A stretch of DNA of 64,000 nucleotides, from the IMG/VR virus record IMGVR_UViG_3300014204_000120, positions 73,850 to 137,849 of that record; one strand, 5' to 3'. Below are positions 6,001-28,688 of the stretch, in pieces. This DNA is from a virus. Lineage: Duplodnaviria; Caudoviricetes. Below the pieces are notes generated by a model, which was not told where the DNA came from, made no database searches, and was given only the letters and a program-made list of their open reading frames with translations. The translations under genes were made by a program, and so were the position numbers. Within the stretch, counting starts at the first letter, position 1; each line of letters opens with the position of its first letter.

Positions 6001-6001
6001 A

Positions 6002-7759: not shown

Positions 7760-8015
7760 GTTATTTTATTTTTCTAAGCTTATTACTGAAAATGATAGTG
7801 ATTTAGATAGTGATCTGAAATCACTTTTGTTGAAAGGTCAAGAAATAGCTAATAAGTTAAACTTAAAATTTCATGGTTGGCAAGAAGCATTTGAAACATT
7901 TACTGGTGCTTTTGTTTTTACTGATAAGAAAACTCGTAGTACTTTTTTTGCTAAAGATGAAACTGAAGCAGAACAAAACTTAAATAAAATGAGATTAAAA
8001 TTTAAAATATCATGA
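7749..8015 (+). CDS. Hypothetical protein with CTS-like N-terminus
   Basis: MDFKLFYFSKLITE. Confidence 0.55.
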   Translation: MDFKLFYFSKLITENDSDLDSDLKSLLLKGQEIANKLNLKFHGWQEAFETFTGAFVFTDKKTRSTFFAKDETEAEQNLNKMRLKFKIS

Positions 8016-10151: not shown

Positions 10152-10160
10152 AGGTTATAT

Positions 10161-11048: not shown

Positions 11049-11058
11049 GAGATAACTT

Positions 11059-12399: not shown

Positions 12400-12407
12400 G
12401 AGATAAC

Positions 12408-14093
12408 ATGTCTTTTTTAGATTTTTATGAACTGAATGAAGTAACTGCAGATCAAAAATATGATCTTCAATATAAAAATAAGCTAGATCGTAATCAGTTT
12501 AATTTAGCAGTTGAATTGGATCCTACTTCTAAAGGTCAAGAAAAAGTTGGTAAATATGTAGATTGGATTATTAAAAACCAATTGTTTGATAAAAAACCAG
12601 AAGAAATAAAAGACTTACTATCTAAATATGAAAAGTTTAAAAGCAAACTAGAAATCAATCAACGTGATATTAATAAACTAAAATATGACGATGTTGTTGG
12701 AGCTATTGATACTTTAATTCAAAAAGGCGCTTTAGTTTCACAAACAGATAAAGATAAAGAAAGAAGAAAAAAAGCTGAAAGTGAAGCAGAAATAGCTTAT
12801 CAAGACGATGATGTAATTGTAATAATACCTAAAACAATGTTTGCATCTCAATACTTTGGTGCAGGATCTGATTGGTGTACTGCCAGACAAGACGATAAAT
12901 CATGTATGTTTGATTCATATGATAGAGATGGTACTTTATATATTATTAAGGATAAACACGATAATAAAAAATATCAGTTATTTGTTGATACTGAAAAAAA
13001 GCATTATGAATATAGAAACAGTCAAAATAAAAATATAGATCCTTTTCAAATATTTTCAGATTATAGTGATTTTATAGAATGGTTAGAAACTAAAGAATTT
13101 CCTAACCAAGGAAAATTAACAGAAGAACAAAGAGATTCAATAGCTCGTGGCATATTAAACGGCTTAGATATAGACGATTTAACAGATGAAGAAGAAAAAG
13201 ATGCACTTGACACAATTAAAACACAATTTTCAGCATATGAAGAAATGTATGAAGACGAAGGTAATGTAACAGATATGCACGAGGCAATTACAAATATAAC
13301 AGATGAATGGGATTATTATTTTGAAAAAGTATTAGATTTATTAGAAAGTAAATATGGAATAGATTCTTCAGCTAAAGAAAATAAACTAATATTGGTAAGT
13401 TATTTAGATAGTTTAAATGATTTATCGTATGATTTAGAAAAAAATAGAGAACATTATTCAATAGATAGTTTTGATCCTGAAAATATTCATGAGTTTCAAT
13501 GGAAGTATTTATCAGATATGGAATTAGACAAAATGATTGATAGTTTAGATATAAATTTTGAAGATAATGAAGGTTTAGATAAAGAAACATTAAGCATTAT
13601 AGAACAATGGCTAACTAGAAAATATAATACCGATCATGAAGCTTTTGTTAGTTTTATGGATGATTTAAATGATATAATTAATTCTGGTCCTTATAAAACA
13701 TTTTTATCTAAAGAAATAGAAAAACAATTAAAAGATTTAATAGATAAAGTTGAAAAGGTAGAATACGGTAAAGAAGGTCATCCCGAATTAGATCTACAAG
13801 GTATATCATTTAAAGATTATCTAAGATTAACAATAAATGAAACTAAAAAAGGAAGCTCTAAAGCTAAAGTAAGAACCAGACCTAATCCTGTATTTGATTC
13901 AACTCATTCTAAAGTAAACGATAATAAAGATCACTTTCCTTTAGGTAATGCTAATCAAGCCAGAAACGCATTAGCTAGAGTAGCACAATATACAAGTAAA
14001 CCTAAATGGTATAATGGAACTTTAGAAAGTTTAAAGAATGCTGTGAAACGCGCAGTTCATAAAGAATATCCTTTAATTGAGATAAGTGATTGA
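12408..14093 (+). CDS. YG.GT.WC-motif phage protein, paralog 3, with an extra basic C-terminal domain (HFPL...ARNALAR, DUF6582-like)
   Basis: ASQYFGAGSDWCTA; DPT...GKY..WI; C-terminal DHFPLGNANQARNALARVAQ. Confidence 0.6.
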   Translation: MSFLDFYELNEVTADQKYDLQYKNKLDRNQFNLAVELDPTSKGQEKVGKYVDWIIKNQLFDKKPEEIKDLLSKYEKFKSKLEINQRDINKLKYDDVVGAIDTLIQKGALVSQTDKDKERRKKAESEAEIAYQDDDVIVIIPKTMFASQYFGAGSDWCTARQDDKSCMFDSYDRDGTLYIIKDKHDNKKYQLFVDTEKKHYEYRNSQNKNIDPFQIFSDYSDFIEWLETKEFPNQGKLTEEQRDSIARGILNGLDIDDLTDEEEKDALDTIKTQFSAYEEMYEDEGNVTDMHEAITNITDEWDYYFEKVLDLLESKYGIDSSAKENKLILVSYLDSLNDLSYDLEKNREHYSIDSFDPENIHEFQWKYLSDMELDKMIDSLDINFEDNEGLDKETLSIIEQWLTRKYNTDHEAFVSFMDDLNDIINSGPYKTFLSKEIEKQLKDLIDKVEKVEYGKEGHPELDLQGISFKDYLRLTINETKKGSSKAKVRTRPNPVFDSTHSKVNDNKDHFPLGNANQARNALARVAQYTSKPKWYNGTLESLKNAVKRAVHKEYPLIEISD

Positions 14094-14096
14094 ATT

Positions 14097-15542
14097 ATGA
14101 AAAAATCATTTTCAAAATATTACTTTAAAGAAAACGTACTAGATAATTGGGATGAAATAAAACAAAAATATCCTAATATCCAAAACGCTATTGAATTAAT
14201 GGATAAAATAAACAAAGCAGGATTTGAAGCACTAATGGTTGGAGGAGTTGTTAGAGACTTAGTATTAGGTAATGAACCAAACGACGTAGATATTACAACT
14301 GACGCAATACCTGATCAAATTGAAAAAATATTTGGTAAAGTTATAGATATAGGTCAAAATAAAAAGATGGGTGTCTCCGTTGTACCATATAAAGGTGAAA
14401 ATTATGAAATTGCTACATATAGAAAAGATCAATTTAATGATTTAAGTAAAGGTAAAGGCGCTGATACTGTTGAACTAACTACTTCATTTAAAGACGATAC
14501 TAGTAGAAGAGACTTTAAGATCAACCAACTTGGAATTGATAAGGATGGTAATATAATAGATAATTGGGGTGGGTTAAAAGATATAAAAAATAAAGTAATA
14601 TCTACTGTTGGAGATCCAAATCTTAGATTTAAAGAGGACCAGATCAGAAGTCTAAGAGCCGTTCGATTTTCTTCTAGATTAGGATTTACTATTAGTCCTG
14701 AAACTATTGAAGCAATGAAACAAAATGCACCTGAAATAACTAAGGTAGCTCCAGAACGTATTACAAAAGAATTAATGAAGATGGCCGAACAAAGTGGACC
14801 TGCATTTGCTGAAGCTATTATAACAATGGATAAAGTAGGTTTGTTACAATATATATTACCTGAAATATTTAAAATGCATGAATTAGAACATAACAAAGAA
14901 TTTCATCCAGAAACAGACGATGAAGGTAAACATACAGTATTTGGGCATGTTATTCAAGCATTAAGATCACAACCATTAAAAGATAGTATTTTGAATTTAT
15001 CAGTTTTAATGCACGACGTAGGCAAAATAAATACTCAATCTATTGATGATCAAGGCTTCATACATTATTTAAGACACGCACAAGAAGCAGATAAACTAAT
15101 AGATCAAATAGCAGATAGACTTAAGTTTGATAATGAAACTCGCCGTAAAATACAATTTGCAGCTATTAATCATATGAAAGCGCACGAAATATTAGCAATG
15201 TCAAATAGTAAGATAGCAGAATTAATGAACAATGATGCTTTTGATATATTGATTAAGGTAGCAGAAGCTGATGCTAGAGCAAGAGGTAAACTGTTTGATG
15301 ATGTAGAATGGCAAAAGATATTATCCAAGATAAACGACATAGCTATTAAATTCAAGGATAAAAAGGCTAAAGATGCCGTAAAAAAGGTAGTTAATGGCAA
15401 TTGGGTTATGGGTTTAAAGGGTATAACAAAGCCAGGTCCTGAAGTTGGAAGAATTATAAATACTACAGTGGATTGGATTATAGATTCTGGTATTGATATG
15501 AATGATACTAAGGCAATAGAGGATTATATTAAAAGCATATGA
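14097..15542 (+). CDS. cca: Class II tRNA nucleotidyltransferase (CCA-adding enzyme) with HD domain
   Basis: VGGVVRD..LG..PNDVDITT, EIATYR, RRDFKIN, RFKEDQIRSLRAVRF (EDxxR), ERI..EL.K, MHDVGK; poly(A) polymerase or partial CC/A-adding activity is not excluded. Confidence 0.85.
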   Translation: MKKSFSKYYFKENVLDNWDEIKQKYPNIQNAIELMDKINKAGFEALMVGGVVRDLVLGNEPNDVDITTDAIPDQIEKIFGKVIDIGQNKKMGVSVVPYKGENYEIATYRKDQFNDLSKGKGADTVELTTSFKDDTSRRDFKINQLGIDKDGNIIDNWGGLKDIKNKVISTVGDPNLRFKEDQIRSLRAVRFSSRLGFTISPETIEAMKQNAPEITKVAPERITKELMKMAEQSGPAFAEAIITMDKVGLLQYILPEIFKMHELEHNKEFHPETDDEGKHTVFGHVIQALRSQPLKDSILNLSVLMHDVGKINTQSIDDQGFIHYLRHAQEADKLIDQIADRLKFDNETRRKIQFAAINHMKAHEILAMSNSKIAELMNNDAFDILIKVAEADARARGKLFDDVEWQKILSKINDIAIKFKDKKAKDAVKKVVNGNWVMGLKGITKPGPEVGRIINTTVDWIIDSGIDMNDTKAIEDYIKSI

Positions 15543-16024
15543 TAAACGAAAAGTATTATTCTACAATGGAAGTAATAACTGGAGCTATGGAAGTCTTTTT
15601 GAATCCTACTATAGATGAAATTAAGGAAATATCATTGGCTGGTGAAGATACTGATAATGAGTTTAGTTATAATAATCCACCGAGTCGAACACTTAGAGCT
15701 TTTATATTAGAAGATGGAAATGTAATAGCTTGGAATGAATATAAATCAGATCATAGAGAAATGATTAAAAAGTTAGATTTGGTTAATAAGAAAGTTATAC
15801 CAATATATATTTACATGAATAAAAATATGAAGTCAGCTGAGAATGTTGAGATATCCGTTTGGTCTGGTGCATTATTAGGTTATAACGTTGATGATCCTGA
15901 TGTTATGAATCAGTTAGAACGTAAAAAAGAAAGTAATCCTTATTTAGTTTCAATATTACAGGGTAAGGATTATTATGGTGAGTCATATCATAAATATATT
16001 GATTGTTATATTTTTAAAGGATAA
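15539..16024 (+). CDS. Hypothetical protein, paralog of the 6002/8012 domain
   Basis: VFLNPT..E...LRAFI..DGNVIAW...H; IPIYIY shared with 6002. Confidence 0.6.
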   Translation: MINEKYYSTMEVITGAMEVFLNPTIDEIKEISLAGEDTDNEFSYNNPPSRTLRAFILEDGNVIAWNEYKSDHREMIKKLDLVNKKVIPIYIYMNKNMKSAENVEISVWSGALLGYNVDDPDVMNQLERKKESNPYLVSILQGKDYYGESYHKYIDCYIFKG

Positions 16025-16046
16025 ATACAGTTAAAGGAGTTTTAAA

Positions 16047-16292
16047 ATGAAAAAAAGTGTAAATTCATTAGTTGAAGCTTATAAAAGTAAGGCTAATTAT
16101 TTATTGGAGACTGATGAAGAGTTAATGGAAAAGTTTGATGTGGCTCATATGAGATGCCCACATTGTAAATTAGATTTAGTTAAGCAATCTAATGCTATTG
16201 AAGTTCCGTCAGAAAAAGGTAAGACAAAAATAGGATTAGATGTAAGTTCGTGTCCTAAATGTGGATTTGTTGGTGATATAGACATTCAATAA
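16047..16292 (+). CDS. Zinc-ribbon protein
   Basis: CPHC...CPKCG; RBS aaggag. Confidence 0.6.
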   Translation: MKKSVNSLVEAYKSKANYLLETDEELMEKFDVAHMRCPHCKLDLVKQSNAIEVPSEKGKTKIGLDVSSCPKCGFVGDIDIQ

Positions 16293-16308
16293 AGGAGATT
16301 AATATAAT

Positions 16309-16644
16309 ATGAGTATTTTAACAGAACTGGGTTTATTAATTGAAGCACCAAAAGATGATGAAGTTGATACTGATGAAATTCTTGATGTACCTGAAGAGCC
16401 AGCTGAAGATATTGAAGTTCCTGAAGAAGAACCAGCTGATAAACATGAAGAAGAGGCTAATGTTGGTGAAGTTGGCGATTTATTAAAACATATAGAATCT
16501 TTACAGAACATTGTGCAAGATATAGATTCTAGAGTTGATATACAAAGTGAAGACGATCCTGCGTTTAGAGCGGAAATATCAATTCGTAAGGCTATTGGTG
16601 CATTACAGGATTTGTCAGATAAACTTTATAAGAAAACAAAGTAA
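16309..16644 (+). CDS. Acidic hypothetical protein
   Basis: RBS aaggag; E/D/P-rich. Confidence 0.6.
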   Translation: MSILTELGLLIEAPKDDEVDTDEILDVPEEPAEDIEVPEEEPADKHEEEANVGEVGDLLKHIESLQNIVQDIDSRVDIQSEDDPAFRAEISIRKAIGALQDLSDKLYKKTK

Positions 16645-16656
16645 GGAGATACAACC

Positions 16657-17478
16657 ATGTCTTTTCTGAATGTATTAAAAGAAAAACTTCAAGCTCAACA
16701 GATTTGGGATGAGTTAAAAGGCAAGTATGAAATGCATTTTAATGTGAATGGAGTTGATTATGCGTTTATAGCTACTTCTGTTGGTGGCGATGTTAATGAT
16801 GATACTATATGGTACTTAGAATTTGAAAACACACAAAGTCATAGATTAAGTAACGGTGATAATGATAAGAACGTTATTAAAGCTATGGTAGAAGCAGTTA
16901 AGACATGGGTAGAAGAAACAGGACCTTATTCATTCTTTACGCACGGTTCTACTATTGAATCTATGAAAGCTGTTATTGAAGGTATTAAAAAGGCTGTTAA
17001 AAAATATAATGTTACTGATGATACTGCTGATAAGAAAGACGAACAAGGTAATGTTATTGAAGGTAATCCAATAGGTAAAGTATCATGGAATAAAATGGCG
17101 GATGTTGAAGTAACACCATCAGAAGAAAAAGCAGATACTAAAAGTATTGAATTTGAAAAAACATTTGAAGAACCTAAAGATCTTAAAACAACTAAAGATT
17201 TTACAAAAGGAACTTCTAAAACTGATAAATTAGATAAAGGCGATAAATCTTATGAGCTAAAGACCGAATCTGTTGAAGTTGGTAAAACCGTTACAATACC
17301 TAAAGATCTTACAACGGATCCAATTAATAAACAAGGTAAGTCTGGTAAAGTTATTAAAGTTACTGATGATGTTGTAGAAGTTAAATTTGATGATAATAAA
17401 GTTGGTAAATATAAATCTGAAATATTTGAAAGTACTGGATCGTGGCAAGACTTTAAAAATAAAAGAATAAATTCATAA
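16657..17478 (+). CDS. Hypothetical protein with C-terminal KOW/SH3-like segment
   Basis: VEVGKTVTIP...GKSGKVIKV...VEVKFDD. Confidence 0.55.
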   Translation: MSFLNVLKEKLQAQQIWDELKGKYEMHFNVNGVDYAFIATSVGGDVNDDTIWYLEFENTQSHRLSNGDNDKNVIKAMVEAVKTWVEETGPYSFFTHGSTIESMKAVIEGIKKAVKKYNVTDDTADKKDEQGNVIEGNPIGKVSWNKMADVEVTPSEEKADTKSIEFEKTFEEPKDLKTTKDFTKGTSKTDKLDKGDKSYELKTESVEVGKTVTIPKDLTTDPINKQGKSGKVIKVTDDVVEVKFDDNKVGKYKSEIFESTGSWQDFKNKRINS

Positions 17479-17488
17479 GGAAACTAAC

Positions 17489-18772
17489 ATGTCTTATAAA
17501 CAATACTTAAAAAATTTAAAAGAAGCATCTGAACAAATTAATAATCCAGATTATAAGTTTTATGTAGTGGCAAATGGTGTAATACATTCTGGTTGGGAAT
17601 ATATTGAAGATGCTAAAGATGATATAAAAGAGTTAGAAGAAAATGGACTTAAGGCCAGAGTATATCAGCGATTTGGTTTAAAAAAGCTAGGATTAAGTCC
17701 TGATAATAATAGTGATTGGGGTAATGCTTATAAGACAAATAAAGTTGAACAAAATGAAGGTATATTTGATGATAATGATTTTAATGATAGAGAAGAACCA
17801 GAAAATGTTGAAACAATTAAATATGAAAAAATTGAACCTATTACAGACGAAGAGGGAAGTACAGTTCATTGGTTTCATGATGAAGAAGTAGAGTTTACTG
17901 ATAATATAGAACAAACAATTCAAAGTATTATTGATAATGGATACGAGGATTTTTTATATAGTGAATTAGGATCTGAAGAAGGAATAATGAGTCCTGATGA
18001 AAAGATAGTCTATTGGGGTAGTGATATTCAAGATTATTTAAGAAAACATAAAGTAAATGAGAATGAGAATGTAACGAAAATAGTAGATCCTGAAACTGTT
18101 AATCCTCAAGAAATTAATAAGTTAATAAAGGCACCTTATGTTAATGCTATGTTATCTACATTAGGTGGAAAGGATAGAGCTTCATTATTAATTAAGTTTT
18201 CATTAGATCCAAAAGAAAAATGGGCAAATAATATACTACAAAATTCTAGATGGGGTATGTTTCATTTAAATAATAATGGTAGTCTAGAACTATCTCACGG
18301 AAAAATTAAATTTAGAAAAACAAAAGTTACAAGTTTAGAAGATGCAATTAACAAAATTAATGCAGCTATAGAAAATCAATCTACAACGGAATCATGGCAA
18401 GAATTTAAAAATAAGAAACTAAATGAATGGGAAGACGATGAAATAGACGACGAATTAAATACTTTGTTAGGAAAAGTTTCAGACGAAGATATAGCTAATG
18501 CTCCTTCTGATGATAACGAACCTGAAGAAGTTGAAGAAGACAAAACAACTATTACTATTAATGAAATTCTAAATAAATTACAATTACTTGCTAGAAAGAA
18601 ACCAATTGAATATAATAACATGATGACTGATTGGAGAGATTCGGTTCCACATACCGGAAAAGAAGATGTTTTTCTTAAAAGTGATAAATTTCAAGGTTGG
18701 CTAAGAGATAGTGGCGAAGCTGATGCTTTTATGAAAGATTTGGCCAATAGATGCTCTGGTTTGAAGTTATAA
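17489..18772 (+). CDS. Acidic multi-segment hypothetical protein (possible processed head polyprotein)
   Basis: MSYKQYLKNLKE; internal IQDYLRKHKVNE and SWQEFKNKKLNE. Confidence 0.55.
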   Translation: MSYKQYLKNLKEASEQINNPDYKFYVVANGVIHSGWEYIEDAKDDIKELEENGLKARVYQRFGLKKLGLSPDNNSDWGNAYKTNKVEQNEGIFDDNDFNDREEPENVETIKYEKIEPITDEEGSTVHWFHDEEVEFTDNIEQTIQSIIDNGYEDFLYSELGSEEGIMSPDEKIVYWGSDIQDYLRKHKVNENENVTKIVDPETVNPQEINKLIKAPYVNAMLSTLGGKDRASLLIKFSLDPKEKWANNILQNSRWGMFHLNNNGSLELSHGKIKFRKTKVTSLEDAINKINAAIENQSTTESWQEFKNKKLNEWEDDEIDDELNTLLGKVSDEDIANAPSDDNEPEEVEEDKTTITINEILNKLQLLARKKPIEYNNMMTDWRDSVPHTGKEDVFLKSDKFQGWLRDSGEADAFMKDLANRCSGLKL

Positions 18773-18799
18773 CTAAAAAATCAATTACATACCAATATC

Positions 18800-18828
18800 T
18801 TGACAATTCTATGATTTGAATGTATATT
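18800..18828 (+). promoter_or_regulatory. Sigma70-type promoter
   Basis: TTGACA(18800)-N17-TATATT(18823), intergenic. Confidence 0.75.
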
Positions 18829-18847
18829 ATAGAAGAAAGGGATAATT

Positions 18848-19486
18848 ATGGTCAATTTTAAAGAATACATTAAAAAACTTGAAACAAATCAATTAGTTGA
18901 AACTAGTTTGTCTAGAGTATGGTCTTATATGGAAAAGTATGAGACTGGAATTATAACTGCTTTTAGATATGCTGAAGATTGTGGAAATGGAAAGAAATAT
19001 AGTAGACACGAAAACAAACAACGTAATAGATCTTTATTGGCTAAGTTAAGAAATATGGGTTATGGAGTAACAGCTGTTCAAGGAACATGGATAAACAATG
19101 CTGGGCTAAAAAGTGCTGAAACATCTTACTTTGTTGTAGATATAGAAAATATTGGAAAACTTAAAAATAATCTTATTGAGTTAGGTACAGAGTTTGATCA
19201 AGATGCAATTTTATGGATTCCTAAAGGTGGAAAGAATGCAGAAATGATTGCTACTAATCAATGTGAAAATGGATTTCCTGGACCTAATAAAGTTAAGATT
19301 TTTAGTGGAGTATACTTTGGAGATAAAGGAACCGTGTTTACTAGAGTTGGGGATAGACCATTTATATTTAAGGAAGATTTTATAGTTAAAGATATAACAA
19401 TTCCTCCTCATGGTTTTATGGGAGTATTAGGTTGTAATACTTTTTCAAAAATGAAATGGCAGAATATATCAGTAGATAAGGATTAA
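18848..19486 (+). CDS. ES.LSR-family paralog 1 (DUF3293-like)
   Basis: ETSLSR, GIITAFR, EN..RN..L...L, G.EFDQDAIL. Confidence 0.6.
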   Translation: MVNFKEYIKKLETNQLVETSLSRVWSYMEKYETGIITAFRYAEDCGNGKKYSRHENKQRNRSLLAKLRNMGYGVTAVQGTWINNAGLKSAETSYFVVDIENIGKLKNNLIELGTEFDQDAILWIPKGGKNAEMIATNQCENGFPGPNKVKIFSGVYFGDKGTVFTRVGDRPFIFKEDFIVKDITIPPHGFMGVLGCNTFSKMKWQNISVDKD

Positions 19487-19489
19487 TAT

Positions 19490-20137
19490 ATGAGTGAATT
19501 TAAAGAATATATTAAACAACATGAGTTAAATCCACTTGTTGAATCAGGATTATCACGAATATATGATATGATGAAACTGCATGATTGCGGTATTATTACA
19601 GCTTTTAGAAGTTATGCAGATTGTGGTAAAGGTGCAAAATATTCAATAGCAGATAATAGAAAAAGAAATAAGTCGTTGTTAGCTAAACTTCAGGATAAAA
19701 GATACGGAGTTACTAATGTTCAAGGTGCATGGATTGAGAATATGGGAACAGATTTTGAAAAGTCTGGTGCAGAAACATCTTTTTTTGTAGTTGATTTAAA
19801 TGATAATGGAACTTTAGAAAAGGATTTACAATCTTTAGGAGAAGAATTTGAACAAGAAGCTATCTTATGGATTCCTAAAGGTGGTGAGTCTGCAACTTTT
19901 ATTGGAACTAATCGTTGTCCTAATACAAGAATTAAATACGGTGAAAAACAAGTTGTAGGTAAAAGATTTTTAGGTAAGAAAAGTGAATTCTTTACATCTA
20001 TTTCTAATAGACCATTTGTATTTGAAAATATTAAAGATATACATGAACTTGTATTACCTGAAGGATTTTTTAGTCGTTGGGTCTGTAATTCATGTGCTAA
20101 AAAGAAATGGCAGGATATGAAAGTAGAGGAAAATTAA
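19490..20137 (+). CDS. ES.LSR-family paralog 2
   Basis: ESGLSR, GIITAFR, AILWIPKGG; closely similar to 18848. Confidence 0.6.
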   Translation: MSEFKEYIKQHELNPLVESGLSRIYDMMKLHDCGIITAFRSYADCGKGAKYSIADNRKRNKSLLAKLQDKRYGVTNVQGAWIENMGTDFEKSGAETSFFVVDLNDNGTLEKDLQSLGEEFEQEAILWIPKGGESATFIGTNRCPNTRIKYGEKQVVGKRFLGKKSEFFTSISNRPFVFENIKDIHELVLPEGFFSRWVCNSCAKKKWQDMKVEEN

Positions 20138-20139
20138 TT

Positions 20140-20850
20140 ATGGACTATAAAAATTTTATAGATTGTAAAAATTTATATCAATTAGATTATTATGGAGAAA
20201 CTATAAGAGTTTTTAAAGGGCTAAAGCTTTATGAACAAGGATGTCCAAATTTAAGTGTTATAAGTGAATCTTCATTAAGTCATATATTAGATTTAATGCA
20301 AAAACAGACATTTGCTATAATTTCCGCGCATTTAGCAATGTTTGATCGTAAAGAAAACATTTTAAGAAATAGAAAATTAAGAGCTATATTTAATAATGCT
20401 AAAATGGGAGTTCATTCATTAATAGGGCATTGGAGAGAATGTCAGTTAAAAGGTACAGATAACAATCCAATTAAATATCAAGATTGTCCTGAAAATAAAT
20501 TAGTTGATGTGATTGAAAGAAGTTATTTAGTTATTAAACCAAATAATATGATTTATGATGATTTTGAAAATCTTATTCGTGACGCTATGACTATCGACGG
20601 AGAAGTACAAAACGGAGTAATTATTAAAAATGCAAAAGGCGATTATGTTGTAATGGATAAACAAGGAGTTAAATTTAAAATTGGAAATAATATTAAACTT
20701 AATAAAATAGCTCAAGCATATTCACAACACATTAAAAAACAAAATGTTCCTTTTATGTTTGAAGGTTTAGAAGTACCAAATGGGTCTATAATGTCATATC
20801 AAATATGGAACAATAAAGAACAAAATTTTAGATATGATAAGGTGGATTAA
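20140..20850 (+). CDS. ES.LSR-family paralog 3
   Basis: ESSLSH, AIISA, ENILRNRKL; ATG 20140 has RBS gagga (track start 20107 lies inside the upstream gene). Confidence 0.55.
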   Translation: MDYKNFIDCKNLYQLDYYGETIRVFKGLKLYEQGCPNLSVISESSLSHILDLMQKQTFAIISAHLAMFDRKENILRNRKLRAIFNNAKMGVHSLIGHWRECQLKGTDNNPIKYQDCPENKLVDVIERSYLVIKPNNMIYDDFENLIRDAMTIDGEVQNGVIIKNAKGDYVVMDKQGVKFKIGNNIKLNKIAQAYSQHIKKQNVPFMFEGLEVPNGSIMSYQIWNNKEQNFRYDKVD

Positions 20851-20853
20851 ATT

Positions 20854-21555
20854 ATGAGTTTTAAACAATATATAAAGAATAAAAATGAGCAACTAATAAT
20901 AGAGTCTGGGTTTTCTAGATTGGCTCAAATTATTACCGGATTAGTACCAAGTGTTAAAACTTTTGCTTTTGTAACATGGGAAAATCCAATGAATCAAGAA
21001 TTAAACAAAAAAGAAAACGAAGATAGAAATAATCGGTTAAAAAGTCAATTAAGAAGTGGAGCATATGGTTTTATTCAAATACATGGTAAATATGATTATT
21101 TAGAAAATCCATATTTTATTTTAAATATAACTGAAAAAAATGCTATTGAATTAGGCAAAGAAGGAAAACAAGAATCTGTTATCTTTGGCTTTGGAGAAGT
21201 TAAAGATAAATTTAATATTACTTTTAAAATGATATATTGTTTTACCGATCAAATACTTGTTAGGAGAGTGCGGCGAACTCGTGAAGAAAACAATTATTAT
21301 TCAGAATATAAAGGTGGAAAATTTCAAATACCATTTTTTGATGATCACTTTAAAACAGCTAAGTTTGATAAAGGTAAAATAGTTAAAGATTCATATAATA
21401 TATTTTATCAAAAAGACTTTCCAGAAGAAATTATTAATGAAGTAGAAAAGCGTGTATCAGATAGATATGATGAAAAATTGATTGGAAAACATCACTGGCT
21501 TATGCGCGGTATATCTTTTGAAATGCTTAAAGAATATCTACAAAACAAATCTTGA
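20854..21555 (+). CDS. ES.LSR-family paralog 4
   Basis: ESGFSR, FVTWENP, ENEDRN.RL, G.QESVIF. Confidence 0.6.
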   Translation: MSFKQYIKNKNEQLIIESGFSRLAQIITGLVPSVKTFAFVTWENPMNQELNKKENEDRNNRLKSQLRSGAYGFIQIHGKYDYLENPYFILNITEKNAIELGKEGKQESVIFGFGEVKDKFNITFKMIYCFTDQILVRRVRRTREENNYYSEYKGGKFQIPFFDDHFKTAKFDKGKIVKDSYNIFYQKDFPEEIINEVEKRVSDRYDEKLIGKHHWLMRGISFEMLKEYLQNKS

Positions 21556-21890: not shown

Positions 21891-23003
21891 TTGATGTCTT
21901 TATCATATGATGAAATGAAGTTGAAGTTAATTCAGGCGTGTGATTCTTATTATAATAAATCATTTTCTTTTATAACAGATAAAGAATTTGATGACCTTAA
22001 AGATGCGTTTAAAGAACAATATCCAGATGATCCGTTTTTAAAAACCATTGGTGCTCCTGTTCCTGAAGCTTCTGATTGGTCTAAAGTAAAACATAGTATT
22101 CCTATGTGTTCGTGTAATAAGGTTAAAACTGTTGATGAATTTATAGATTGGTGTGCTTCTAATCGTTTTGATGCAGATACAGCTTTAATTACATCAGAAA
22201 AGTTAGATGGAATGTCTTTATCAATAGATTATATTAATGGTAAATTAGTTAATGGTATTACTCGTGGAGATGGTTTTATTGGTGAAGCAATTACACAAAA
22301 TGTAATTAAAATGCAAAATGTTAAAGTTAATCTTGATAATAAGTATACTGGGAGTCTGCGTGGTGAAGTTCTATTAAATAAAAATGATTTTAAGGCTGTT
22401 AATTTAATATGTGAAGCTCGTGGTGAAAAAGGATTTCAGAACATACGTAATGGAGCTTCTGGTATAGCTAAAAGATATGACTCTAAGTATTCAGAATATC
22501 TATATGTAAGATATTATTATGCTTCTGGTGATTTTAAAACCAAATCAGAAATGTATCAATTTATTGAATCATTAGGTTTAAAAACATGTAAACATTTTTC
22601 TGGAAACTTTGAAACATCTAAAATAGTTTATAATGAATACGAACAATCTATTAGAGCAGGATTGGATCATGCCATTGATGGATTAGTTATAGAACCAGAT
22701 AATATTGAAACGCTTAATGATTTAGGTATGCTTAATGAGAATTTGAGAGGTCAAATTGCTTGGAAGTTTACTAGTGAAACAGCAATGACTAAGATTAAGG
22801 ATATTGTCTGGCAGTTGGGTAACAGTTCGCGTATCACTCCTGTTGCAATTTTAGAGACAGTAGAATTAAATGGAGTTAATATTAGTCGTGCAACAATGCA
22901 TAATTTAGATATATTTGAAAAGTTAAAGCCGTATAAAGGGGCTACTTGTTTAATATCAAGACGTGGTGATGTAATTCCTTTTATTGAAAAAGTTTATCCT
23001 TAA
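21891..23003 (+). CDS. ligA: NAD-dependent DNA ligase, N-terminal half (domain Ia, adenylation, OB fold)
   Basis: YY...ITDKEFD, H.IPM.S, SEKLDG (KxDG), TRGDG..GE.IT, RGE, DGLV, AWKF, RATMHN, RRGDVIP, then stop. Confidence 0.9.
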   Translation: MMSLSYDEMKLKLIQACDSYYNKSFSFITDKEFDDLKDAFKEQYPDDPFLKTIGAPVPEASDWSKVKHSIPMCSCNKVKTVDEFIDWCASNRFDADTALITSEKLDGMSLSIDYINGKLVNGITRGDGFIGEAITQNVIKMQNVKVNLDNKYTGSLRGEVLLNKNDFKAVNLICEARGEKGFQNIRNGASGIAKRYDSKYSEYLYVRYYYASGDFKTKSEMYQFIESLGLKTCKHFSGNFETSKIVYNEYEQSIRAGLDHAIDGLVIEPDNIETLNDLGMLNENLRGQIAWKFTSETAMTKIKDIVWQLGNSSRITPVAILETVELNGVNISRATMHNLDIFEKLKPYKGATCLISRRGDVIPFIEKVYP

Positions 23004-23020: not shown

Positions 23021-23476
23021 TTGATGCATTATAGAACTGTTAAAAGTATAGTTGAGAATGAGATAGATATGGCTTCTGAGTTTACATTATGTGGTATTAT
23101 TATAGATGAGGATAGTTTTGAGGGGTTTTTAGAAAATGTTAAAGCTGAAATATTAGAAGAAATTCATGAGAAGTATGCATTTATTTCAACTAATAATATT
23201 TTATGTCATCCAGATGGTTTTGTATTGTTTGGTAGATTTATAAATGATTTGGATGAAAATAAAACTATTGCGCAGTCTAAGTCTGAAATGATGGATGATT
23301 TTTTAAAGTACGGATTATTTAATAACAACTTACAAGTTGTGAGTAAAGGAGTTGTTTTTTTATCAGGTATATTAGTGGATAATGATGATATTGAAGATGC
23401 AGAAGTAACTGAACAAAATGAATCACAAGTTAAAGGTATTGAAGAAGCAATTAAAAAAGAAAGAAGTGAATTATGA
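23021..23476 (+). CDS. Acidic hypothetical protein
   Basis: RBS aaggag; stop overlaps the next start. Confidence 0.6.
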   Translation: MMHYRTVKSIVENEIDMASEFTLCGIIIDEDSFEGFLENVKAEILEEIHEKYAFISTNNILCHPDGFVLFGRFINDLDENKTIAQSKSEMMDDFLKYGLFNNNLQVVSKGVVFLSGILVDNDDIEDAEVTEQNESQVKGIEEAIKKERSEL

Positions 23477-24024
23477 AGATTAGAAATGGATTTGTAAGTA
23501 ACAGTTCTTCAAGTTCATTTATTGTTTATTTTGAAAAGCTTCCTGAAAATGTAGATGAACTTAAAAAAATGTTGTTTGGCGATAGAAAAGAATATCATTC
23601 ACCATATAGCGAAGGTTTTTGGTCAACAGATCAAATAGCTGAAATTGTATGGAATGATATGCAAGAAAATAAAAATGCTACTGTTAAAGAAATTGTAGAA
23701 GATATTAAATCAGGTCATCCAGTAAATGATCCTATAGTTGAATCTATTATAGGTCAATATAATAAAATGCCGGATTACTTTAGTTATAAAAAACCAGGAA
23801 CAGATGAAAAGACACCTTGGAATGAAAGATATGATAATGATACTTATGAAAAAGCATTAGATGAATATTTAAAACCTTATATAAACATGATTGATAAAGC
23901 TGCAGTTAAAGAAAAAAGAGCATTTAGATTTGAATATAGTGATAATGATGGCGAATTATATTCTGCAATGGAACACGGTAATTTGTTTGATAAAGTTAAA
24001 CATCAAAAAATTTCACATCATTGA
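23473..24024 (+). CDS. GFVSNSSSSS-motif protein 1
   Basis: MKIRNGFVSNSSSSSFIV. Confidence 0.8.
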   Translation: MKIRNGFVSNSSSSSFIVYFEKLPENVDELKKMLFGDRKEYHSPYSEGFWSTDQIAEIVWNDMQENKNATVKEIVEDIKSGHPVNDPIVESIIGQYNKMPDYFSYKKPGTDEKTPWNERYDNDTYEKALDEYLKPYINMIDKAAVKEKRAFRFEYSDNDGELYSAMEHGNLFDKVKHQKISHH

Positions 24025-24036
24025 AAGAAAAAAGTA

Positions 24037-25098
24037 ATGATTAAAAAGTATCGCTCACCAGAATATAACTATAACTTTAATACGGAAACAGGCTTCTTTG
24101 TTAGATGGGGTAAAACATTAGAAGAAGATCCTCGTTTTTCCCCGTTCGGTCCTGAAATATTAGATCTAGAAATTAGTATTAATGGGTGTCCAAACAAATG
24201 CCCAATGTGTTATAAAGATAATACTAATAAACTTCCTACTAATATGTCATTTGAAACATTTAAATTAATATTAGATAAAATGCCTGATACATTAACTCAA
24301 ATAGCTTTTGGAATTACTGGTATTCAAACAAATCCAGATTTTATTAAAATGTTAAAATATACTAAAGAAAAAGGAATTATACCTAATTTTACATTGTCAG
24401 GAATCGATTTAACAGATGAAATAGCTAAAGAAGTAGTTAATTATATTGGAGCTTGTGCTGTGTCAGCTTATGAAAGTAATAAAAATATATGTTATAATAC
24501 AGTTAAGAAATTTACGGATTTGGGTATTAAACAAACAAACATTCATTTATTCACATCAAAAGAATCTAAAGATTTTGTATACGAAGTATTAAATGATACA
24601 TTAATAGATGAAAGATTAAAAAATCTTAATGCTGTTGTTTTGTTAAAATGTAAACCTAAGGGTAGAGCTGCTAATAATTTTCATGTATTAACTACAAATG
24701 AATATAATGATTTGGTTAATTTTTGTTTGAAAAATAATATTAGATATGGATTTGATTCTTGCTCAACCCCAGATTTTGAAAATGCTATTGCGATTAATAA
24801 AGAGATGTCATTAAAACAGAAGTCTGATTTATTAATGATGTCAGAAAGTTGTGAGAGTTTTGGGTTGTTTTCATCGTATATAGATGTTTATGGAAATTAT
24901 TATCCGTGTAGTTTTGCTACAGGTGAAGGTGAATGGATAGAAGGATTGTCTGTTATAAATTGTAATAACTTTTTAAAAGATATATGGTTTAATGAAAAAG
25001 TTAATAAATATAGAAATATATCATTAAATACTTGTTATAAAAGCGGTTGTAGAAAATGTTTAATATTTGATATTAATCCTAAAGATTATGAAATTTAA
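24037..25098 (+). CDS. Radical SAM enzyme with C-terminal SPASM/twitch-like cysteines
   Basis: PEILDLEIS..CPNKCPMCY; TQIAFG; CES..FSSYIDVYG.YYPCSF; C....CRKC. Confidence 0.9.
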   Translation: MIKKYRSPEYNYNFNTETGFFVRWGKTLEEDPRFSPFGPEILDLEISINGCPNKCPMCYKDNTNKLPTNMSFETFKLILDKMPDTLTQIAFGITGIQTNPDFIKMLKYTKEKGIIPNFTLSGIDLTDEIAKEVVNYIGACAVSAYESNKNICYNTVKKFTDLGIKQTNIHLFTSKESKDFVYEVLNDTLIDERLKNLNAVVLLKCKPKGRAANNFHVLTTNEYNDLVNFCLKNNIRYGFDSCSTPDFENAIAINKEMSLKQKSDLLMMSESCESFGLFSSYIDVYGNYYPCSFATGEGEWIEGLSVINCNNFLKDIWFNEKVNKYRNISLNTCYKSGCRKCLIFDINPKDYEI

Positions 25099-25106
25099 GG
25101 AACAAT

Positions 25107-25319
25107 ATGAAATCGTCTGAGTTATTTGATAAAGCTTCAAAGATTATTCAAATGAAGATAGATTCAATTACTCTTAGTAATCAGGCTATAGTTGATGCTC
25201 AAACATTAAAACAAGAAGTTGAAAGTAATAAAAATTATTATTTAGAATTCATGGAAGCTAAAGATCTTAATGAAGTTTTAACTGGGCTTAATCACGTTAT
25301 ACCAAAGGGGTCATTATGA
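25107..25319 (+). CDS. Small helical hypothetical protein
   Basis: RBS aagga; coupled to the next gene. Confidence 0.55.
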   Translation: MKSSELFDKASKIIQMKIDSITLSNQAIVDAQTLKQEVESNKNYYLEFMEAKDLNEVLTGLNHVIPKGSL

Positions 25320-25621
25320 AGATTAGAAAAGGATTTGTAAGTAATAGTTCTAGTTCCAGTTTTATTATAATGCAGAAAAGAATGGATTTATCACAAACTG
25401 AATTAGATAAACGTAATAAAAAAATATTATTGGATTATGGTATAGATAAAAGTGATATTAAAGATACTTTAAAAGAATATGAAAAAAATCAACTTATACT
25501 AATTTATACTTCAGTAGATCAAAATGCTTTTTCAGGTGAAGGAGAGTCTCCTGATTCAATTATATATAAGTTAATGGAAAAATTAAACATTAAGGATATT
25601 ACAATAAAAATAGAAGATTAG
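25316..25621 (+). CDS. GFVSNSSSSS-motif protein 2
   Basis: MKIRKGFVSNSSSSSFII. Confidence 0.8.
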   Translation: MKIRKGFVSNSSSSSFIIMQKRMDLSQTELDKRNKKILLDYGIDKSDIKDTLKEYEKNQLILIYTSVDQNAFSGEGESPDSIIYKLMEKLNIKDITIKIED

Positions 25622-25629
25622 GAGAAAAT

Positions 25630-26139
25630 ATGAAAATTAGAAAAGGATTTGTTAGTAATTCAAGTAGTTCATCTTATATTATTACATTAGATAAGAATAA
25701 AGCAGATTTTTTAGCAGATATGGTTACAGCTTATGAATATGGAGCATTTAATGTAAACTATATTGTTGAAAATATAAAAAAGACAATTAAGGAATGCGAA
25801 GAACCAGATCAAGTAAGTATTTCTTTTATGGCAGAACATATGCAAAATCGTATTAATGATTTAAAGTTATTGTTAGAAAAAATATACGATTTAACTAAAA
25901 TTGAAGACGAAGATAAGAATAGTAGATATTATGTGTGTAATACTTCGGTTATAGAATTGTTATTAAACGAATATTATAATGTGAAAATTGAAGAATTAAC
26001 TAAGATTATTAATGTTTCTGGTTGGACCCCTATGCATAATAGTTATAATGATATGCCAGAAATATTGAAGGATATTATTATTTGGTATACATTTGAAGAT
26101 CCTAAGGTTATTTTAAAAACTAAACAAATAGAAGAATAA
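25630..26139 (+). CDS. GFVSNSSSSS-motif protein 3
   Basis: MKIRKGFVSNSSSSSYII. Confidence 0.8.
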   Translation: MKIRKGFVSNSSSSSYIITLDKNKADFLADMVTAYEYGAFNVNYIVENIKKTIKECEEPDQVSISFMAEHMQNRINDLKLLLEKIYDLTKIEDEDKNSRYYVCNTSVIELLLNEYYNVKIEELTKIINVSGWTPMHNSYNDMPEILKDIIIWYTFEDPKVILKTKQIEE

Positions 26140-26148
26140 GGAGAAAAT

Positions 26149-26496
26149 ATGAAAATTAGAAATGGGTTTGTAAGTAATAGTAGTTCTAGTTCTTTTATTG
26201 TTGCTGTAAAAAAGAATACTAAAGTAAAATTTACTGGTGAAATTGATTTAAAATCGTTAGCAGACTATGTTTGTGAAGATGAAGACGATTTAATAAAAGC
26301 ACTTGCAGAGATAGATAATGATGATAAAAAGTTGTTTACTAAATGTTTGAAATTGATTGAAGAAGGTAATACAATTTTATTTGGTTCATTTGATGATCAA
26401 TCCGGTGATACTATAGAAGGAGCTATATGTGAGTGTGGTATAGATAGAAAAAATAATCCACATGTAACAGTTATTGAAAACGAAGCAGGATACTAA
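26149..26496 (+). CDS. GFVSNSSSSS-motif protein 4
   Basis: MKIRNGFVSNSSSSSFIV. Confidence 0.8.
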   Translation: MKIRNGFVSNSSSSSFIVAVKKNTKVKFTGEIDLKSLADYVCEDEDDLIKALAEIDNDDKKLFTKCLKLIEEGNTILFGSFDDQSGDTIEGAICECGIDRKNNPHVTVIENEAGY

Positions 26497-26505
26497 GGAG
26501 GAAGT

Positions 26506-26904
26506 ATGAAAGTTCGTTTAGGATTTGTAAGTAATAGCAGCTCCAGTTCGTTTGTATTAGTTGCAGATAAAAAGGATTTTGATGAAGCAATAGTAAAATT
26601 ACATCCATCAATACAACATGTAATTGGTAGAACTAAAACTGTAAATTTTAATGGTAAAGATATTATATGCATTTTAGATCATGAATCAACAGAAGATGTT
26701 TGTTTTCAGGATATTTTTGAAGATTATGAAAGTCATAAATTTATAAATCATGAAGGAAAAGAAGTTGTATTAACTGAAGAAGAAATGGACGATTGGGATA
26801 CTATTGAAGGTATAGTATATATGCGTGAAAGCGCTTTGAGAATTTTAAGTGATAAAATTAAAAAAATGAAAAAAGATTGTGTTTTTGAAAGTCTTTCTTG
26901 TTAA
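26506..26904 (+). CDS. GFVSNSSSSS-motif protein 5
   Basis: MKVRLGFVSNSSSSSFVL. Confidence 0.8.
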   Translation: MKVRLGFVSNSSSSSFVLVADKKDFDEAIVKLHPSIQHVIGRTKTVNFNGKDIICILDHESTEDVCFQDIFEDYESHKFINHEGKEVVLTEEEMDDWDTIEGIVYMRESALRILSDKIKKMKKDCVFESLSC

Positions 26905-26915
26905 TTGAGAATATT

Positions 26916-27359
26916 ATGAAGATCAGAAAAGGATTTGTAAGTAATAGTTCAACTAGTTCATTTTTAATATATGGAATTGCAATTGATAGTGAAGATAGAG
27001 ATGTTATACTTATAAATGAAATTAAAAAACTGAAAACAATTGAAGAATTTAAATCAGTTTATAAGTATACAGATGAAGAAATATACAATATAATTCACCA
27101 AGAAAATCAAACTGTTGATCAAATTATTGAAAAACTTACTGAAGAATATGAAGATGATTGGGAAGATCTAAAATCTGATAGTAGTGATTTATTTTTTGGT
27201 ACTTCTGATGTAGGTTATTATATTGGAAAATCACCACAGAGTGCGCCAAATGATATAACTTTTGCTGATTGGAAAAAACAAATTGAAGAAGAAACCAGTG
27301 AACTTTTAGGTAAAAAAGTTAAATGTAGTTGGATTGAAGAGGCATGGTCTGATGGATAA
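26916..27359 (+). CDS. GFVSNSSSSS-motif protein 6
   Basis: MKIRKGFVSNSSTSSFLI from ATG 26916 (track start 26898 adds 6 residues). Confidence 0.8.
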   Translation: MKIRKGFVSNSSTSSFLIYGIAIDSEDRDVILINEIKKLKTIEEFKSVYKYTDEEIYNIIHQENQTVDQIIEKLTEEYEDDWEDLKSDSSDLFFGTSDVGYYIGKSPQSAPNDITFADWKKQIEEETSELLGKKVKCSWIEEAWSDG

Positions 27360-27582
27360 TAAAAAAATCAAACAAGTATTAGTTGATGGTAGAGGTTTTA
27401 TTTATGCTGAAGGTGATATATCTTCTGGTATATCTCCTTGTAAGTTAGAGTGGTTTGAAGTTAATGGCGAAATGGCTATTGTTAAATGGATAAAAGCTAC
27501 TTATCCTGATGGAACTGTAAAAGAATTTAATGGAAAATATATAATTGAAGTTGAATACTATCCATTGAAAGCGAAGGAGTAA
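27352..27582 (+). CDS. Hypothetical protein
   Basis: ATG 27352 within track ORF 27334; GEMA.V.W. Confidence 0.5.
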   Translation: MDNKKIKQVLVDGRGFIYAEGDISSGISPCKLEWFEVNGEMAIVKWIKATYPDGTVKEFNGKYIIEVEYYPLKAKE

Positions 27583-27585: not shown

Positions 27586-28386
27586 ATGAATAAGGAATAT
27601 TTCACTCCACCATTGAATTGCCCTGTATGTAATTGTGAAACTAAACGAGATGGAGTTTATTTAATTTGTCCTAATCCTGAATGTTCTGGTGGAAAAATCG
27701 GGGATTTGATTAAATGGATTAAAAAGCTTGATTTAAAAGGCGTTGCAGAAGCTACCTTAGAAAAACTATATAACGCTGAATTAGTGGCAACCCCAGCAGA
27801 CCTTTATAAATTAAAACCAGAATTAATTGAAAACTTAGAAGGTTTTGGTTCCAGTTCAGCTAATAAGATTGTTGAAACATTAAATGAAAAGAAAGATATA
27901 TCGTTTGGTGAGTTTATAGGTGGATTGAATATACCTAATGTTAGTCAAAAAACAGCCGAATTGTTAGAACGTAATGGATATGATACCATAAATAAACTAT
28001 TAGAATCAAAGTCTATTGATTTATCTAATATTAAAGGTATTGGTGAAACTACGGCAAATGATATAATTAATGGCATTTCAAAGAAGAAAGATGTTATATT
28101 ACAATTATTGAATGTTGGTATTAAGATAAAGGAGAAAGTTAAAATGACAAAGTCACATCCATTGACAGGGAAAAAGGTAGTTTTTACTGGTGCTTTGAAT
28201 ATTAAAAGAAACGAAGCACAGAAAATGGTAATGGAAGTTGGTGGAGAGTGCCCGTCGTCTTTAAGTAAGGATACTGATTTTCTTGTTATGGCAGATCCAA
28301 ATTCTGGTTCTTCTAAGGCTGTTAAGGCACAATCATATGGAACAAAAGTTCTTAGTGAAGATCAATTTATGGAATTGTTTGAATGA
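27586..28386 (+). CDS. ligA: NAD-dependent DNA ligase, C-terminal half (Zn finger, HhH, BRCT)
   Basis: FTPPLNCPVC...LICPNPEC; LDLKGVAE; ADLYKL; LEGFG; IKGIGE; GKKVVFTG...R.EA...GG...SLSKDTDFLV...SSK..KA; own RBS aaggag. Confidence 0.9.
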   Translation: MNKEYFTPPLNCPVCNCETKRDGVYLICPNPECSGGKIGDLIKWIKKLDLKGVAEATLEKLYNAELVATPADLYKLKPELIENLEGFGSSSANKIVETLNEKKDISFGEFIGGLNIPNVSQKTAELLERNGYDTINKLLESKSIDLSNIKGIGETTANDIINGISKKKDVILQLLNVGIKIKEKVKMTKSHPLTGKKVVFTGALNIKRNEAQKMVMEVGGECPSSLSKDTDFLVMADPNSGSSKAVKAQSYGTKVLSEDQFMELFE

Positions 28387-28688
28387 ATAGATTAGAATCC
28401 GTAGATCAAATACCAAATTTAGGTATTGTTGTTATCTTAGTACAAGTTGAGTCTAGAACTCCTTGTAAAAAATTTTTAAATGAAATGAACGCTTGTATTA
28501 GTGAATTATTAAAAGATGTTAATGCGACTTATTATACTTTAGAATTAACTAATGTCATAAAAGAATCATTAGGAGTACATTATATACCAACAGTTATAGT
28601 TTATAAGGATGGAAAAGAAACTAAAAGGTTTAATGGTCATTATTGGAGTAAATTTCAAATTGCTGGATATATTCGGGAAGGATTATGA
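28383..28688 (+). CDS. Thioredoxin-fold protein lacking the first Cys of CxxC
   Basis: RTPCK; GV..IPTVIVYKDGKE..RF.G. Confidence 0.6.
   Translation: MNRLESVDQIPNLGIVVILVQVESRTPCKKFLNEMNACISELLKDVNATYYTLELTNVIKESLGVHYIPTVIVYKDGKETKRFNGHYWSKFQIAGYIREGL

Follow-up and report, generated by a model that had tools for sequence, protein, structure and literature searches.

A 64,000-nucleotide stretch of viral DNA (Caudoviricetes; referred to here as the window) forms the terminal 64 kb of the 137,849-base IMG/VR virus record IMGVR_UViG_3300014204_000120, which carries a completeness rating of 53%. The base composition is about 27% G+C and almost every gene lies on the + strand. Within the window is a cassette in which one radical S-adenosylmethionine (SAM) enzyme gene is accompanied by six open reading frames (ORFs) whose products share a 16-residue N-terminal tag, M-K-[IV]-R-x-G-F-V-S-N-S-S-[ST]-S-S-[FY], all of them on the + strand and inside a split copy of the DNA ligase gene ligA (Table 1); the arrangement is found exactly as the original prediction had described it. 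For the sixth of these ORFs the automatic listing gives a TTG start (26898), whereas the first codon of the tag is the ATG at 26916, as had been proposed. The enzyme and the tag travel together in three deep lineages, and together they probably represent an undescribed protein-modification system that is very widespread in phages and has a sister form in bacterial defence-like operons.

Conservation and abundance of the tag

Within the window the tag is a feature of the cassette only, as a degenerate DNA pattern for its G-F-V-S-N-S-S-S-S-S core has exactly six matches in the 64 kb, all in the tagged ORFs, where shuffled sequences would be expected to give 0.01; the pattern has no further match in the 137.8 kb record. 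The six tags are 89% identical as protein and 74% identical as DNA, and 43% of the codon pairs that specify the same tag residue use different codons, indicating that selection acts on the peptide. The proposal that the tag is conserved at the protein level and not at the DNA level therefore stands, as does the description of the remainder of each protein (the body) as mostly acidic, the six having isoelectric points of 4.2–5.1.

A tag profile of 36 positions and 82 diverse tags, searched against 1.84 billion cluster representatives at E <= 0.001, retrieved 29,439 of them (clusters at 50% identity), and in nearly all of the matches listed the tag begins at residue 1. Besides Met1, only Asn10, Ser11 and Ser12 are invariant across the 82 diverse tags. 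The tag thereby marks one of the larger unannotated phage protein families, and a single enzyme clade goes with it. The literature searched yielded no paper on the tag or on an enzyme-tag system, and the two families concerned, PHROG 7397 for the tagged proteins and PHROG 7293 for the enzyme, are both labelled ‘unknown function’, with neither the pairing nor the tag annotated there. The match to PHROG 7397 covers the whole of tagged protein 1 (E 1.6e-16); for the other five it runs via the tag (E 1.3e-5 to 1.6e-3).

Two known motifs were considered for the tag and set aside. The glycyl-radical motif (R-x-G-F) was rejected as Gly6 is Asp in a second phage clade; the glycyl-radical consensus, R-V-x-G-[FWY], also has a spacing unlike that of the tag. 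A phosphate-binding loop of the low-molecular-weight phosphatase or phosphotransferase system (PTS) IIB kind was unsupported by any fold search. In a separate observation, some database proteins (P0123, P0125, P0126 and P0129) carry two tags, the second of which is internal and directly follows a typical C-terminal tail; these look like two adjacent tagged genes read as one, which could come about by a recoded stop codon or a true fusion.

Linkage of enzyme and tag across phages and bacteria

The pairing was followed from both of its partners. Five of the six IMG/VR loci found via the enzyme have one to four tagged genes just downstream, and 54 of the 79 loci found via the family of tagged protein 1 (ORF1) have an enzyme homologue within 10 kb. 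Arrays in large phages hold from 1 to 13 tagged genes. A separate myovirus lineage carries a variant tag (K4, D6, T9) on a single ORF1-type gene with its own enzyme, about 30% identical, directly upstream; the tag of the second phage clade reads F-V-T or F-I-T in place of F7-V8-S9. The enzyme is present in Escherichia coli phages RB16 and RB43 and in many Klebsiella phages. An ORF1-type tagged protein is encoded as well by RB43 and the Klebsiella phages, none being among the tagged proteins listed for RB16, and PMBT1 has two tagged proteins.

The third lineage is bacterial. Twelve contigs from metagenome-assembled or other genomes (Acidobacteriota, Verrucomicrobiota and Oscillochloris; up to 1.47 Mb) have one tagged gene with an enzyme about 29% identical immediately after it, and the intact bacterial tagged genes encode 134–137 amino acids (aa). 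In two annotated operons (L103, 4736–9502; L125, 4754–9493) the order is a nucleoside triphosphatase (NTPase) of the STAND (signal transduction ATPases with numerous domains) class, a small ORF, the tagged gene (its product ending in Trp) and the enzyme. The NTPase, of about 950 aa, has SMEK and NACHT domains and matches Avs2 models; the small ORF encodes 128–145 aa and has no likeness to the window ORF at 23021–23476. A gene with an ArdC-N domain follows the four-gene operon in L103.

The radical SAM enzyme

The enzyme is a member of the radical SAM superfamily, having the C-x3-C-x2-C motif at the start of a partial triose-phosphate isomerase (TIM) barrel. It matches PHROG 7293 with E 1.8e-79 and the Pfam model Radical_SAM (PF04055) with E 2.3e-6 (28.3 bits, cut-off 29.5). 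The three cysteines of the motif, C51, C55 and C58, are kept in 43–44 of 45 homologues. The extra C-terminal cysteines noted originally are likewise present; exactly four of them (C242, C272, C291 and C341) are invariant among the 45 homologues, and the remaining C-terminal cysteines of the window enzyme are conserved in at most 24%. Four invariant cysteines are enough for one auxiliary cluster, and the seven or eight conserved C-terminal cysteines of a two-cluster SPASM domain are not found in this enzyme. The Pfam SPASM model is matched at E 0.0019 (18.9 bits, cut-off 21.5) and TIGR04085 at 19.2 (cut-off 27); C272 to C291 supply the C-x13-G-x4-C part of the SPASM motif. The enzyme is better described by a SPASM domain that is twitch-like, cut-down or limited to one cluster.

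The NCBIfam matches of the enzyme are all weak (a tungsten-cofactor maturase, StsB, NirJ2, MftC and PqqE), and a sequence search of solved structures gave no match. Its structural model, with a predicted local distance difference test score (pLDDT) of 93.2, shows an N-terminal three-stranded sheet, then the barrel, then the C-terminal domain. Entering this model into Foldseek places SkfB, SuiB (with SuiA), CteB and anSMEcpe at the top, with E from 3.5e-10 to 4e-8, and also returns PqqE and BtrN. The window contains a second radical SAM-like ORF (2785–3576), with C-x3-C-x2-C near its start, in a glycan gene cluster. A search of the record with the cassette enzyme finds only that enzyme itself, so the two are unrelated.

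Predicted contact between enzyme and tag

The enzyme was co-folded with two 4Fe-4S clusters, SAM and residues 1–40 of tagged protein 1, each protein having its own alignment. The interface score (ipSAE) of 0.85 compares with 0.01 for the highest-scoring of 3 controls; 58 of 80 solved complexes attain the mark applied to this score, as do 2 of 110 mismatched pairs, counts that are only rough here because own alignments were used and small molecules included. The runs agree in at least 84% of contacts, with a partner pLDDT of at least 57. Only tag residues 1–19 touch the enzyme, so that the predicted interface is exactly the tag, and recognition of the shared N-terminus by the enzyme, as had been supposed, is favoured by a model that passes its controls.

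In the model, tag residues 2–7 pair with enzyme residues 18–23, Phe7 sits among residues 88, 115, 117, 138, 139 and 166, and the rest of the tag runs along 198–203, 236–242, 265–274, 278–279 and 291–293. The enzyme interface overall comprises residues 88, 90, 115–119, 137–141, 166–170, 198–203, 236–242, 272–274, 278–279 and 291–293, and largely coincides with invariant or near-invariant columns (Q88, P116, N117, T119, G138, N168, H170, A199, L203, D240, S241, C242, C272, E273, S279, C291, S292 and F293). The top-ranked contact joins enzyme residue 21 to tag residue 4. That the S-N-S-S-S run is the modified segment remains a suggestion; the best-defined contacts are those of tag residues 2–8, with Phe7 as a buried anchor.

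The paired segments also vary together between lineages. Tags with R4, G6 and S9 pair with an enzyme hairpin reading G-F-F-A-R (phage clade A and the bacterial form), and tags with K4, D6 and T9 pair with a hairpin reading G-L-E-x-L-[KR]. This covariation is consistent with direct contact but is not proof of it, because few independent events are involved.

Bodies and C-terminal tails of the tagged proteins

Tagged protein 1 is of the ‘His-ended’ type, which is the tagged type most constantly paired with the enzyme. It has 326 homologues in a 5.8-billion-protein collection, none of them with a Pfam domain and all with uninformative source names. The family combines the invariant N-terminus with an invariant C-terminal module (D157, E167, H168), and the last residue is His in 120 of the 121 ORF1-type proteins tallied. 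In the AlphaFold (AF2) model of tagged protein 1 (pLDDT 90.7), residues 1–6 are disordered and therefore free to dock, and a strand formed by residues 13–19 joins two C-terminal strands as the core strand. With this model, Foldseek found no match in the PDB at E <= 0.001, VIA-align gave a best Z of 3.6 for a helical hairpin only, and the ESM Atlas returned only viral hypothetical proteins above a template modelling (TM) score of 0.5; the absence of fold matches does not establish the fold as new.

For the remaining types, 277 tagged proteins from related loci were stripped of the tag and compared by BLAST, giving 83 clusters, of which 52 are singletons; profile comparison joins few of these. 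Ten body-family representatives had no Pfam match, and the tagged proteins as a whole gave nothing above cut-off in Pfam, NCBIfam or PADLOC, so that the earlier idea of the bodies as anti-defence effectors finds no backing in these collections. Tagged protein 6 has a weak PqqD match below cut-off (E 0.0018), and its neighbours above TM 0.5 in the ESM Atlas are only viral hypothetical proteins.

The claim that the bodies diverge beyond the tag is correct for most families, which have no detectable relation to one another, but not for that of tagged protein 4 (ORF4). In hhalign its body cluster (13) has a C-terminal module in common with cluster 7 (92%, E 5.6e-7, 46 columns), and clusters 7 and 13 together align with the tagged protein of the bacterial STAND operon (96.8%, E 2.3e-10, 106 columns). 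Judged by these profile alignments, the ORF4 family of the window is homologous to the bacterial protein. When the ORF1-type body was compared with the ORF4 type and cluster 7 in the same way, an S-D-x-D-G stretch came out on top at 2–23% probability, which is not significant.

The C-termini also have common features. Gly plus His, Tyr or Trp occurs within the last five residues of 27% of the non-ORF1 tagged proteins versus 6% of neighbouring ORFs, and a terminal Cys in 6% versus 1%; these enrichment counts are not phylogenetically independent. Among the bacterial tagged proteins the final residue is Trp in 8 of 9 copies. Recurrent tails in related loci (L007–L091) include G-G-x-Y, A-W-x-D-G, G-G-Y-D-G, G-T-R-x-C and S-N-D-N-Y. 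That short tails are common to many tagged proteins suggests the C-terminus matters as well as the N-terminus.

Genomic context of the cassette

The genes of the cassette form a tight run, with spacing that ranges from a 26-base overlap to an 18-base gap. No terminator-like sites were found between them, and promoter and terminator scan counts were no higher than in shuffles. The three untagged ORFs (starting at 23021, 25107 and 27334) match no Pfam or PHROGs family above cut-off and have no relatives in the 85 related loci, and megablast of the cassette against 50,697 phage records gave no match.

Table 1. Genes of the cassette and of its two borders, in window coordinates.
Coordinates	Strand	Feature	Evidence or remark
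21891..23003	+	Nicotinamide adenine dinucleotide (NAD)-dependent DNA ligase, N-terminal half (adenylation and OB domains); left border	Pfam DNA_ligase_aden E 8e-42, DNA_ligase_OB E 2e-19
23021..23476	+	151-aa acidic ORF	Stop overlaps start of tagged gene 1
23473..24024	+	Tagged protein 1, 183 aa, ‘His-ended’ type	Tag; PHROG 7397
24037..25098	+	Radical SAM enzyme, 353 aa	PHROG 7293; C51-x3-C55-x2-C58
25107..25319	+	70-aa untagged ORF	Stop overlaps start of tagged gene 2
25316..25621	+	Tagged protein 2, 101 aa	Singleton body among 277 tagged proteins
25630..26139	+	Tagged protein 3, 169 aa, tag ending in Tyr	Singleton body among 277
26149..26496	+	Tagged protein 4, 115 aa, C-terminus G-Y	Body cluster 13
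26506..26904	+	Tagged protein 5, 132 aa, C-terminus Cys	Singleton body among 277
26916..27359	+	Tagged protein 6, 147 aa, C-terminus A-W-S-D-G	Body family recurrent in 13 loci
27334..27582	+	82-aa untagged ORF	No Pfam or PHROGs match
27586..28386	+	NAD-dependent DNA ligase, C-terminal half (Zn finger, helix-hairpin-helix, BRCT); right border	Pfam HHH_5 E 8e-14, BRCT E 9e-14

The position of the cassette inside ligA looks incidental. A ligase gene lies nearby in only 3 of the 85 related loci, making a functional link unlikely. In L080 (11938–14694) the ligase is interrupted at the junction seen in the window, its halves being separated by a 263-aa ORF that has a TnsA-like endonuclease domain; in L072 (11143–13125) the ligase is one intact 660-aa gene within the tagged-gene array. 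Given the TnsA-like ORF at the same split point in the one locus and the intact gene in the other, the location looks like an insertion into a split site that recurs. The C-terminal ligase half of the window is immediately followed, with a stop/start overlap, by a thioredoxin-like gene (28383–28688; Pfam E 3.7e-5).

Two other repeated motifs are seen in the window. A long run of genes at 5322–21555 has N-termini of the form M-x-F-x-x-Y-Y-F/L-x-E, a second common motif unrelated to the tag, and about 20 small tandem genes (63–94 aa) at 57874–63992, most of them starting M-K-L-K/I-E/D, form a third paralogous array.

Proposed function and alternatives

The reading we favour, and hold to be somewhat more probable than all of its competitors taken together, is that the cassette is a radical SAM protein-modification system in which one enzyme serves six substrate proteins and modifies their tag. 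Where the original prediction spoke of one maturase with many substrates, the co-occurrence, the co-fold and the persistence of the pairing in the clade at about 30% identity and in bacterial operons support it; that binding leads to chemistry on the tag, and with it the reacting residue, the product and the role of the modified proteins, is what we infer. Each substrate would present its first 19 or so residues to the enzyme, tag residues 2–7 adding a strand to the N-terminal three-stranded sheet, Phe7 plugging a pocket of invariant barrel residues, and the Ser run lying along the C-terminal domain that would hold the single auxiliary [4Fe-4S] cluster. The 5'-deoxyadenosyl radical would then abstract a hydrogen within F-V-S-N-S-S-S-S-S and the auxiliary cluster take up an electron, giving a two-electron oxidative product. 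The preferred candidate is a three-residue cyclophane joining the Phe7 ring to the C-beta of Ser9, of the kind made by FxsB-type triceptide synthases on F-x-S; the second candidate is conversion of a Ser to formylglycine, as by the anaerobic sulfatase-maturating enzymes (anSMEs). Both products would lose 2 Da, so that mass alone cannot separate them. The tag is first off the ribosome and residues 13–19 are buried once the protein has folded, so action of the enzyme probably precedes folding of the body.

Several observations weigh against this reading. The co-fold score expresses how confident the model itself is, and part of it may stem from resemblance to maturase-peptide complexes already solved. 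Tag residues 13–19 form the core strand in the monomer model and cannot be in the folded protein and in the enzyme at once. The best-defined Phe7 contacts lie at the starts of barrel strands, for which reason Phe7 may serve as an anchor without being the residue that reacts. No FxsB or anSME model is found among the NCBIfam matches of the enzyme at E up to 1. The linkage, too, has exceptions. About 20 kb separate the enzyme from the two tagged genes in RB43-like and Slopekvirus phages. Of ten records in which no enzyme lies within 10 kb, five encode it at another place and four are short fragments, but one is a complete 225 kb genome (L034, 224,826 bases, with terminal repeats) that has an ORF1-type tagged gene and no Radical_SAM match. 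This gene (9974–10672) has Thr in place of the start Met and Asn in place of the invariant His168, and may be a decaying copy or an enzyme-independent one. The co-occurrence of motif and enzyme that was foreseen is found in the 54 loci, the 30%-identity clade and the bacterial operons, while motif proteins standing apart from the enzyme, which had been named beforehand as part of what would speak against the idea, occur in the RB43-like phages and in this one genome.

Other explanations of the same data have to be considered. The tag could be a leader or docking handle only, with the chemistry directed at another part of the protein, such as its C-terminal tail, or at a third molecule recruited by the bodies. 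We consider this unlikely, yet it is the strongest competitor: leader-guided recognition is the rule among maturases of the ribosomally synthesized, post-translationally modified peptides known as RiPPs, maturases that are the closest folds to the enzyme, and the C-termini described above are unusual (the terminal His of the ORF1 type, the Gly with aromatic or His, the Cys and the bacterial Trp). Against it, a special C-terminal tail is missing from about half of the body families, the counts for the tails suffer from shared ancestry as mentioned, and tag residues 7–19 are modelled as passing through the barrel and along the auxiliary-cluster domain, on invariant enzyme residues. Less likely again is that the tag is, as a P-loop would be, a ligand-binding or structural motif of a single very divergent superfamily, the enzyme being a pathway partner that makes a small molecule for these proteins to bind or use and leaves the proteins themselves unmodified. 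A similar C-terminal strand-loop-helix-strand module in the ORF1 type, the ORF4 type, cluster 7 and the bacterial type hints at one ancestral fold, the Atlas model of tagged protein 6 (ORF6) has weak Rossmann neighbours of the flavin adenine dinucleotide (FAD) kind (TM 0.35–0.41), and both the complete genome with a tagged protein and no radical SAM gene and the 20 kb separation in RB43-like phages speak for it as well. However, most body families are unrelated once the tag is removed, and residues 1–6 of the ORF1 model are disordered, the tag not being modelled as a ligand loop within the fold. The co-fold far exceeds its best control, and the nearest folds to the enzyme are peptide or protein maturases, with the small-molecule enzymes viperin and BtrN ranking lower.

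Self-processing of the tag, by cleavage at the Asn10-Ser11 bond or a Ser-Ser bond as in pyruvoyl enzymes, or its use as a targeting signal, would make the proximity of the enzyme incidental. The invariance of precisely Asn10, Ser11 and Ser12 would suit such a site, and another shared N-terminal motif stands on many genes of the same phage (5.3–21.5 kb), but the linkage in three deep lineages, the co-fold and the hairpin covariation would all be left unexplained, and we give this possibility very little credence.

If the modification reading is taken together with the bacterial operons, the modified proteins probably act in phage-host conflict, by analogy with the sister system, which lies behind a STAND NTPase; the Avs2-like operon and the homology of its tagged protein to a phage body family both point in this direction. 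A broader and more speculative proposal, which we hold to be less likely than not, is that of a general protein-tagging system of phages and bacteria. The enzyme would install a covalent mark (the Phe-Ser cyclophane or formylglycine) on the tag of dozens of proteins, probably at the ribosome; the bacterial form would be one arm of a STAND-NTPase defence, and the phage arrays, ORF4 among them, would be effectors or counter-measures that depend on the modified tag. Should the enzyme indeed act on the tag in this way, whole proteins would be seen to carry a new post-translational modification and radical SAM maturases to have a new substrate-recognition mode, and thousands of ‘hypothetical’ early phage genes would become functionally approachable. 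The system is directly testable, as the enzyme is carried by Escherichia coli phages RB16 and RB43 and by many Klebsiella phages.

Comparison with known systems

FxsB, the enzyme of the FxSxx-COOH peptides, is reported to form cyclophanes (PMC10114670), and triceptide synthases crosslink an aromatic ring to the C-beta of the residue two positions on, with a loss of 2 Da (PMC11499958). The likeness to the cassette lies in a radical SAM enzyme with a SPASM-type iron-sulfur domain and in an aromatic-x-Ser motif, here F7-V8-S9, replaced by F-V-T or F-I-T in the second clade. It extends to the setting, since NTPase conflict systems include FxSxx peptides together with a radical SAM-SPASM enzyme (PMC7159879) and an Avs2-like STAND NTPase precedes the bacterial sister form. 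The systems differ in that the motif here is at the extreme N-terminus of proteins of 100–230 aa, whereas FxSxx is at the C-terminus of a short peptide; the enzyme here has only four invariant auxiliary cysteines, and one enzyme would serve up to 13 different phage proteins.

The anSMEs (AtsB, anSMEcpe) resemble the proposed system in modifying a full-size protein, before it folds, at a Ser that belongs to a short conserved motif close to the N-terminus, and in carrying out a two-electron oxidation using auxiliary clusters; with respect to the enzymes themselves the likeness is structural only (4k39, E 4e-8, TM 0.58). Unlike their substrates, the tag does not have the motif C/S-x-P/A-x-R, as no Ser in it is followed by Pro or Ala and then x-Arg. 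The anSMEs have two auxiliary clusters and the enzyme here has cysteines for one, and an anSME serves a single enzyme family whereas the bodies here represent dozens of families.

The best structural matches to the enzyme are found in the pairs SuiB-SuiA, CteB-CteA and SkfB-SkfA, and the scheme of one enzyme for many substrates with a conserved N-terminus and a variable remainder is that of RiPPs. In contrast to these, no PqqD-like domain was detected in the enzyme, its 45-residue N-terminal sheet taking that role in the model, and the conserved segment itself is predicted to lie in the barrel. The six putative substrates have 101–183 aa, and tagged protein 1 is predicted to be folded (pLDDT as given above), whereas RiPP precursors are short peptides whose leader is removed. 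We would place the cassette with the radical SAM maturation of peptides and proteins, and what is unusual about it is the use of full-size substrates, the N-terminal position of the tag, the size of the arrays and the number of protein families that carry it.

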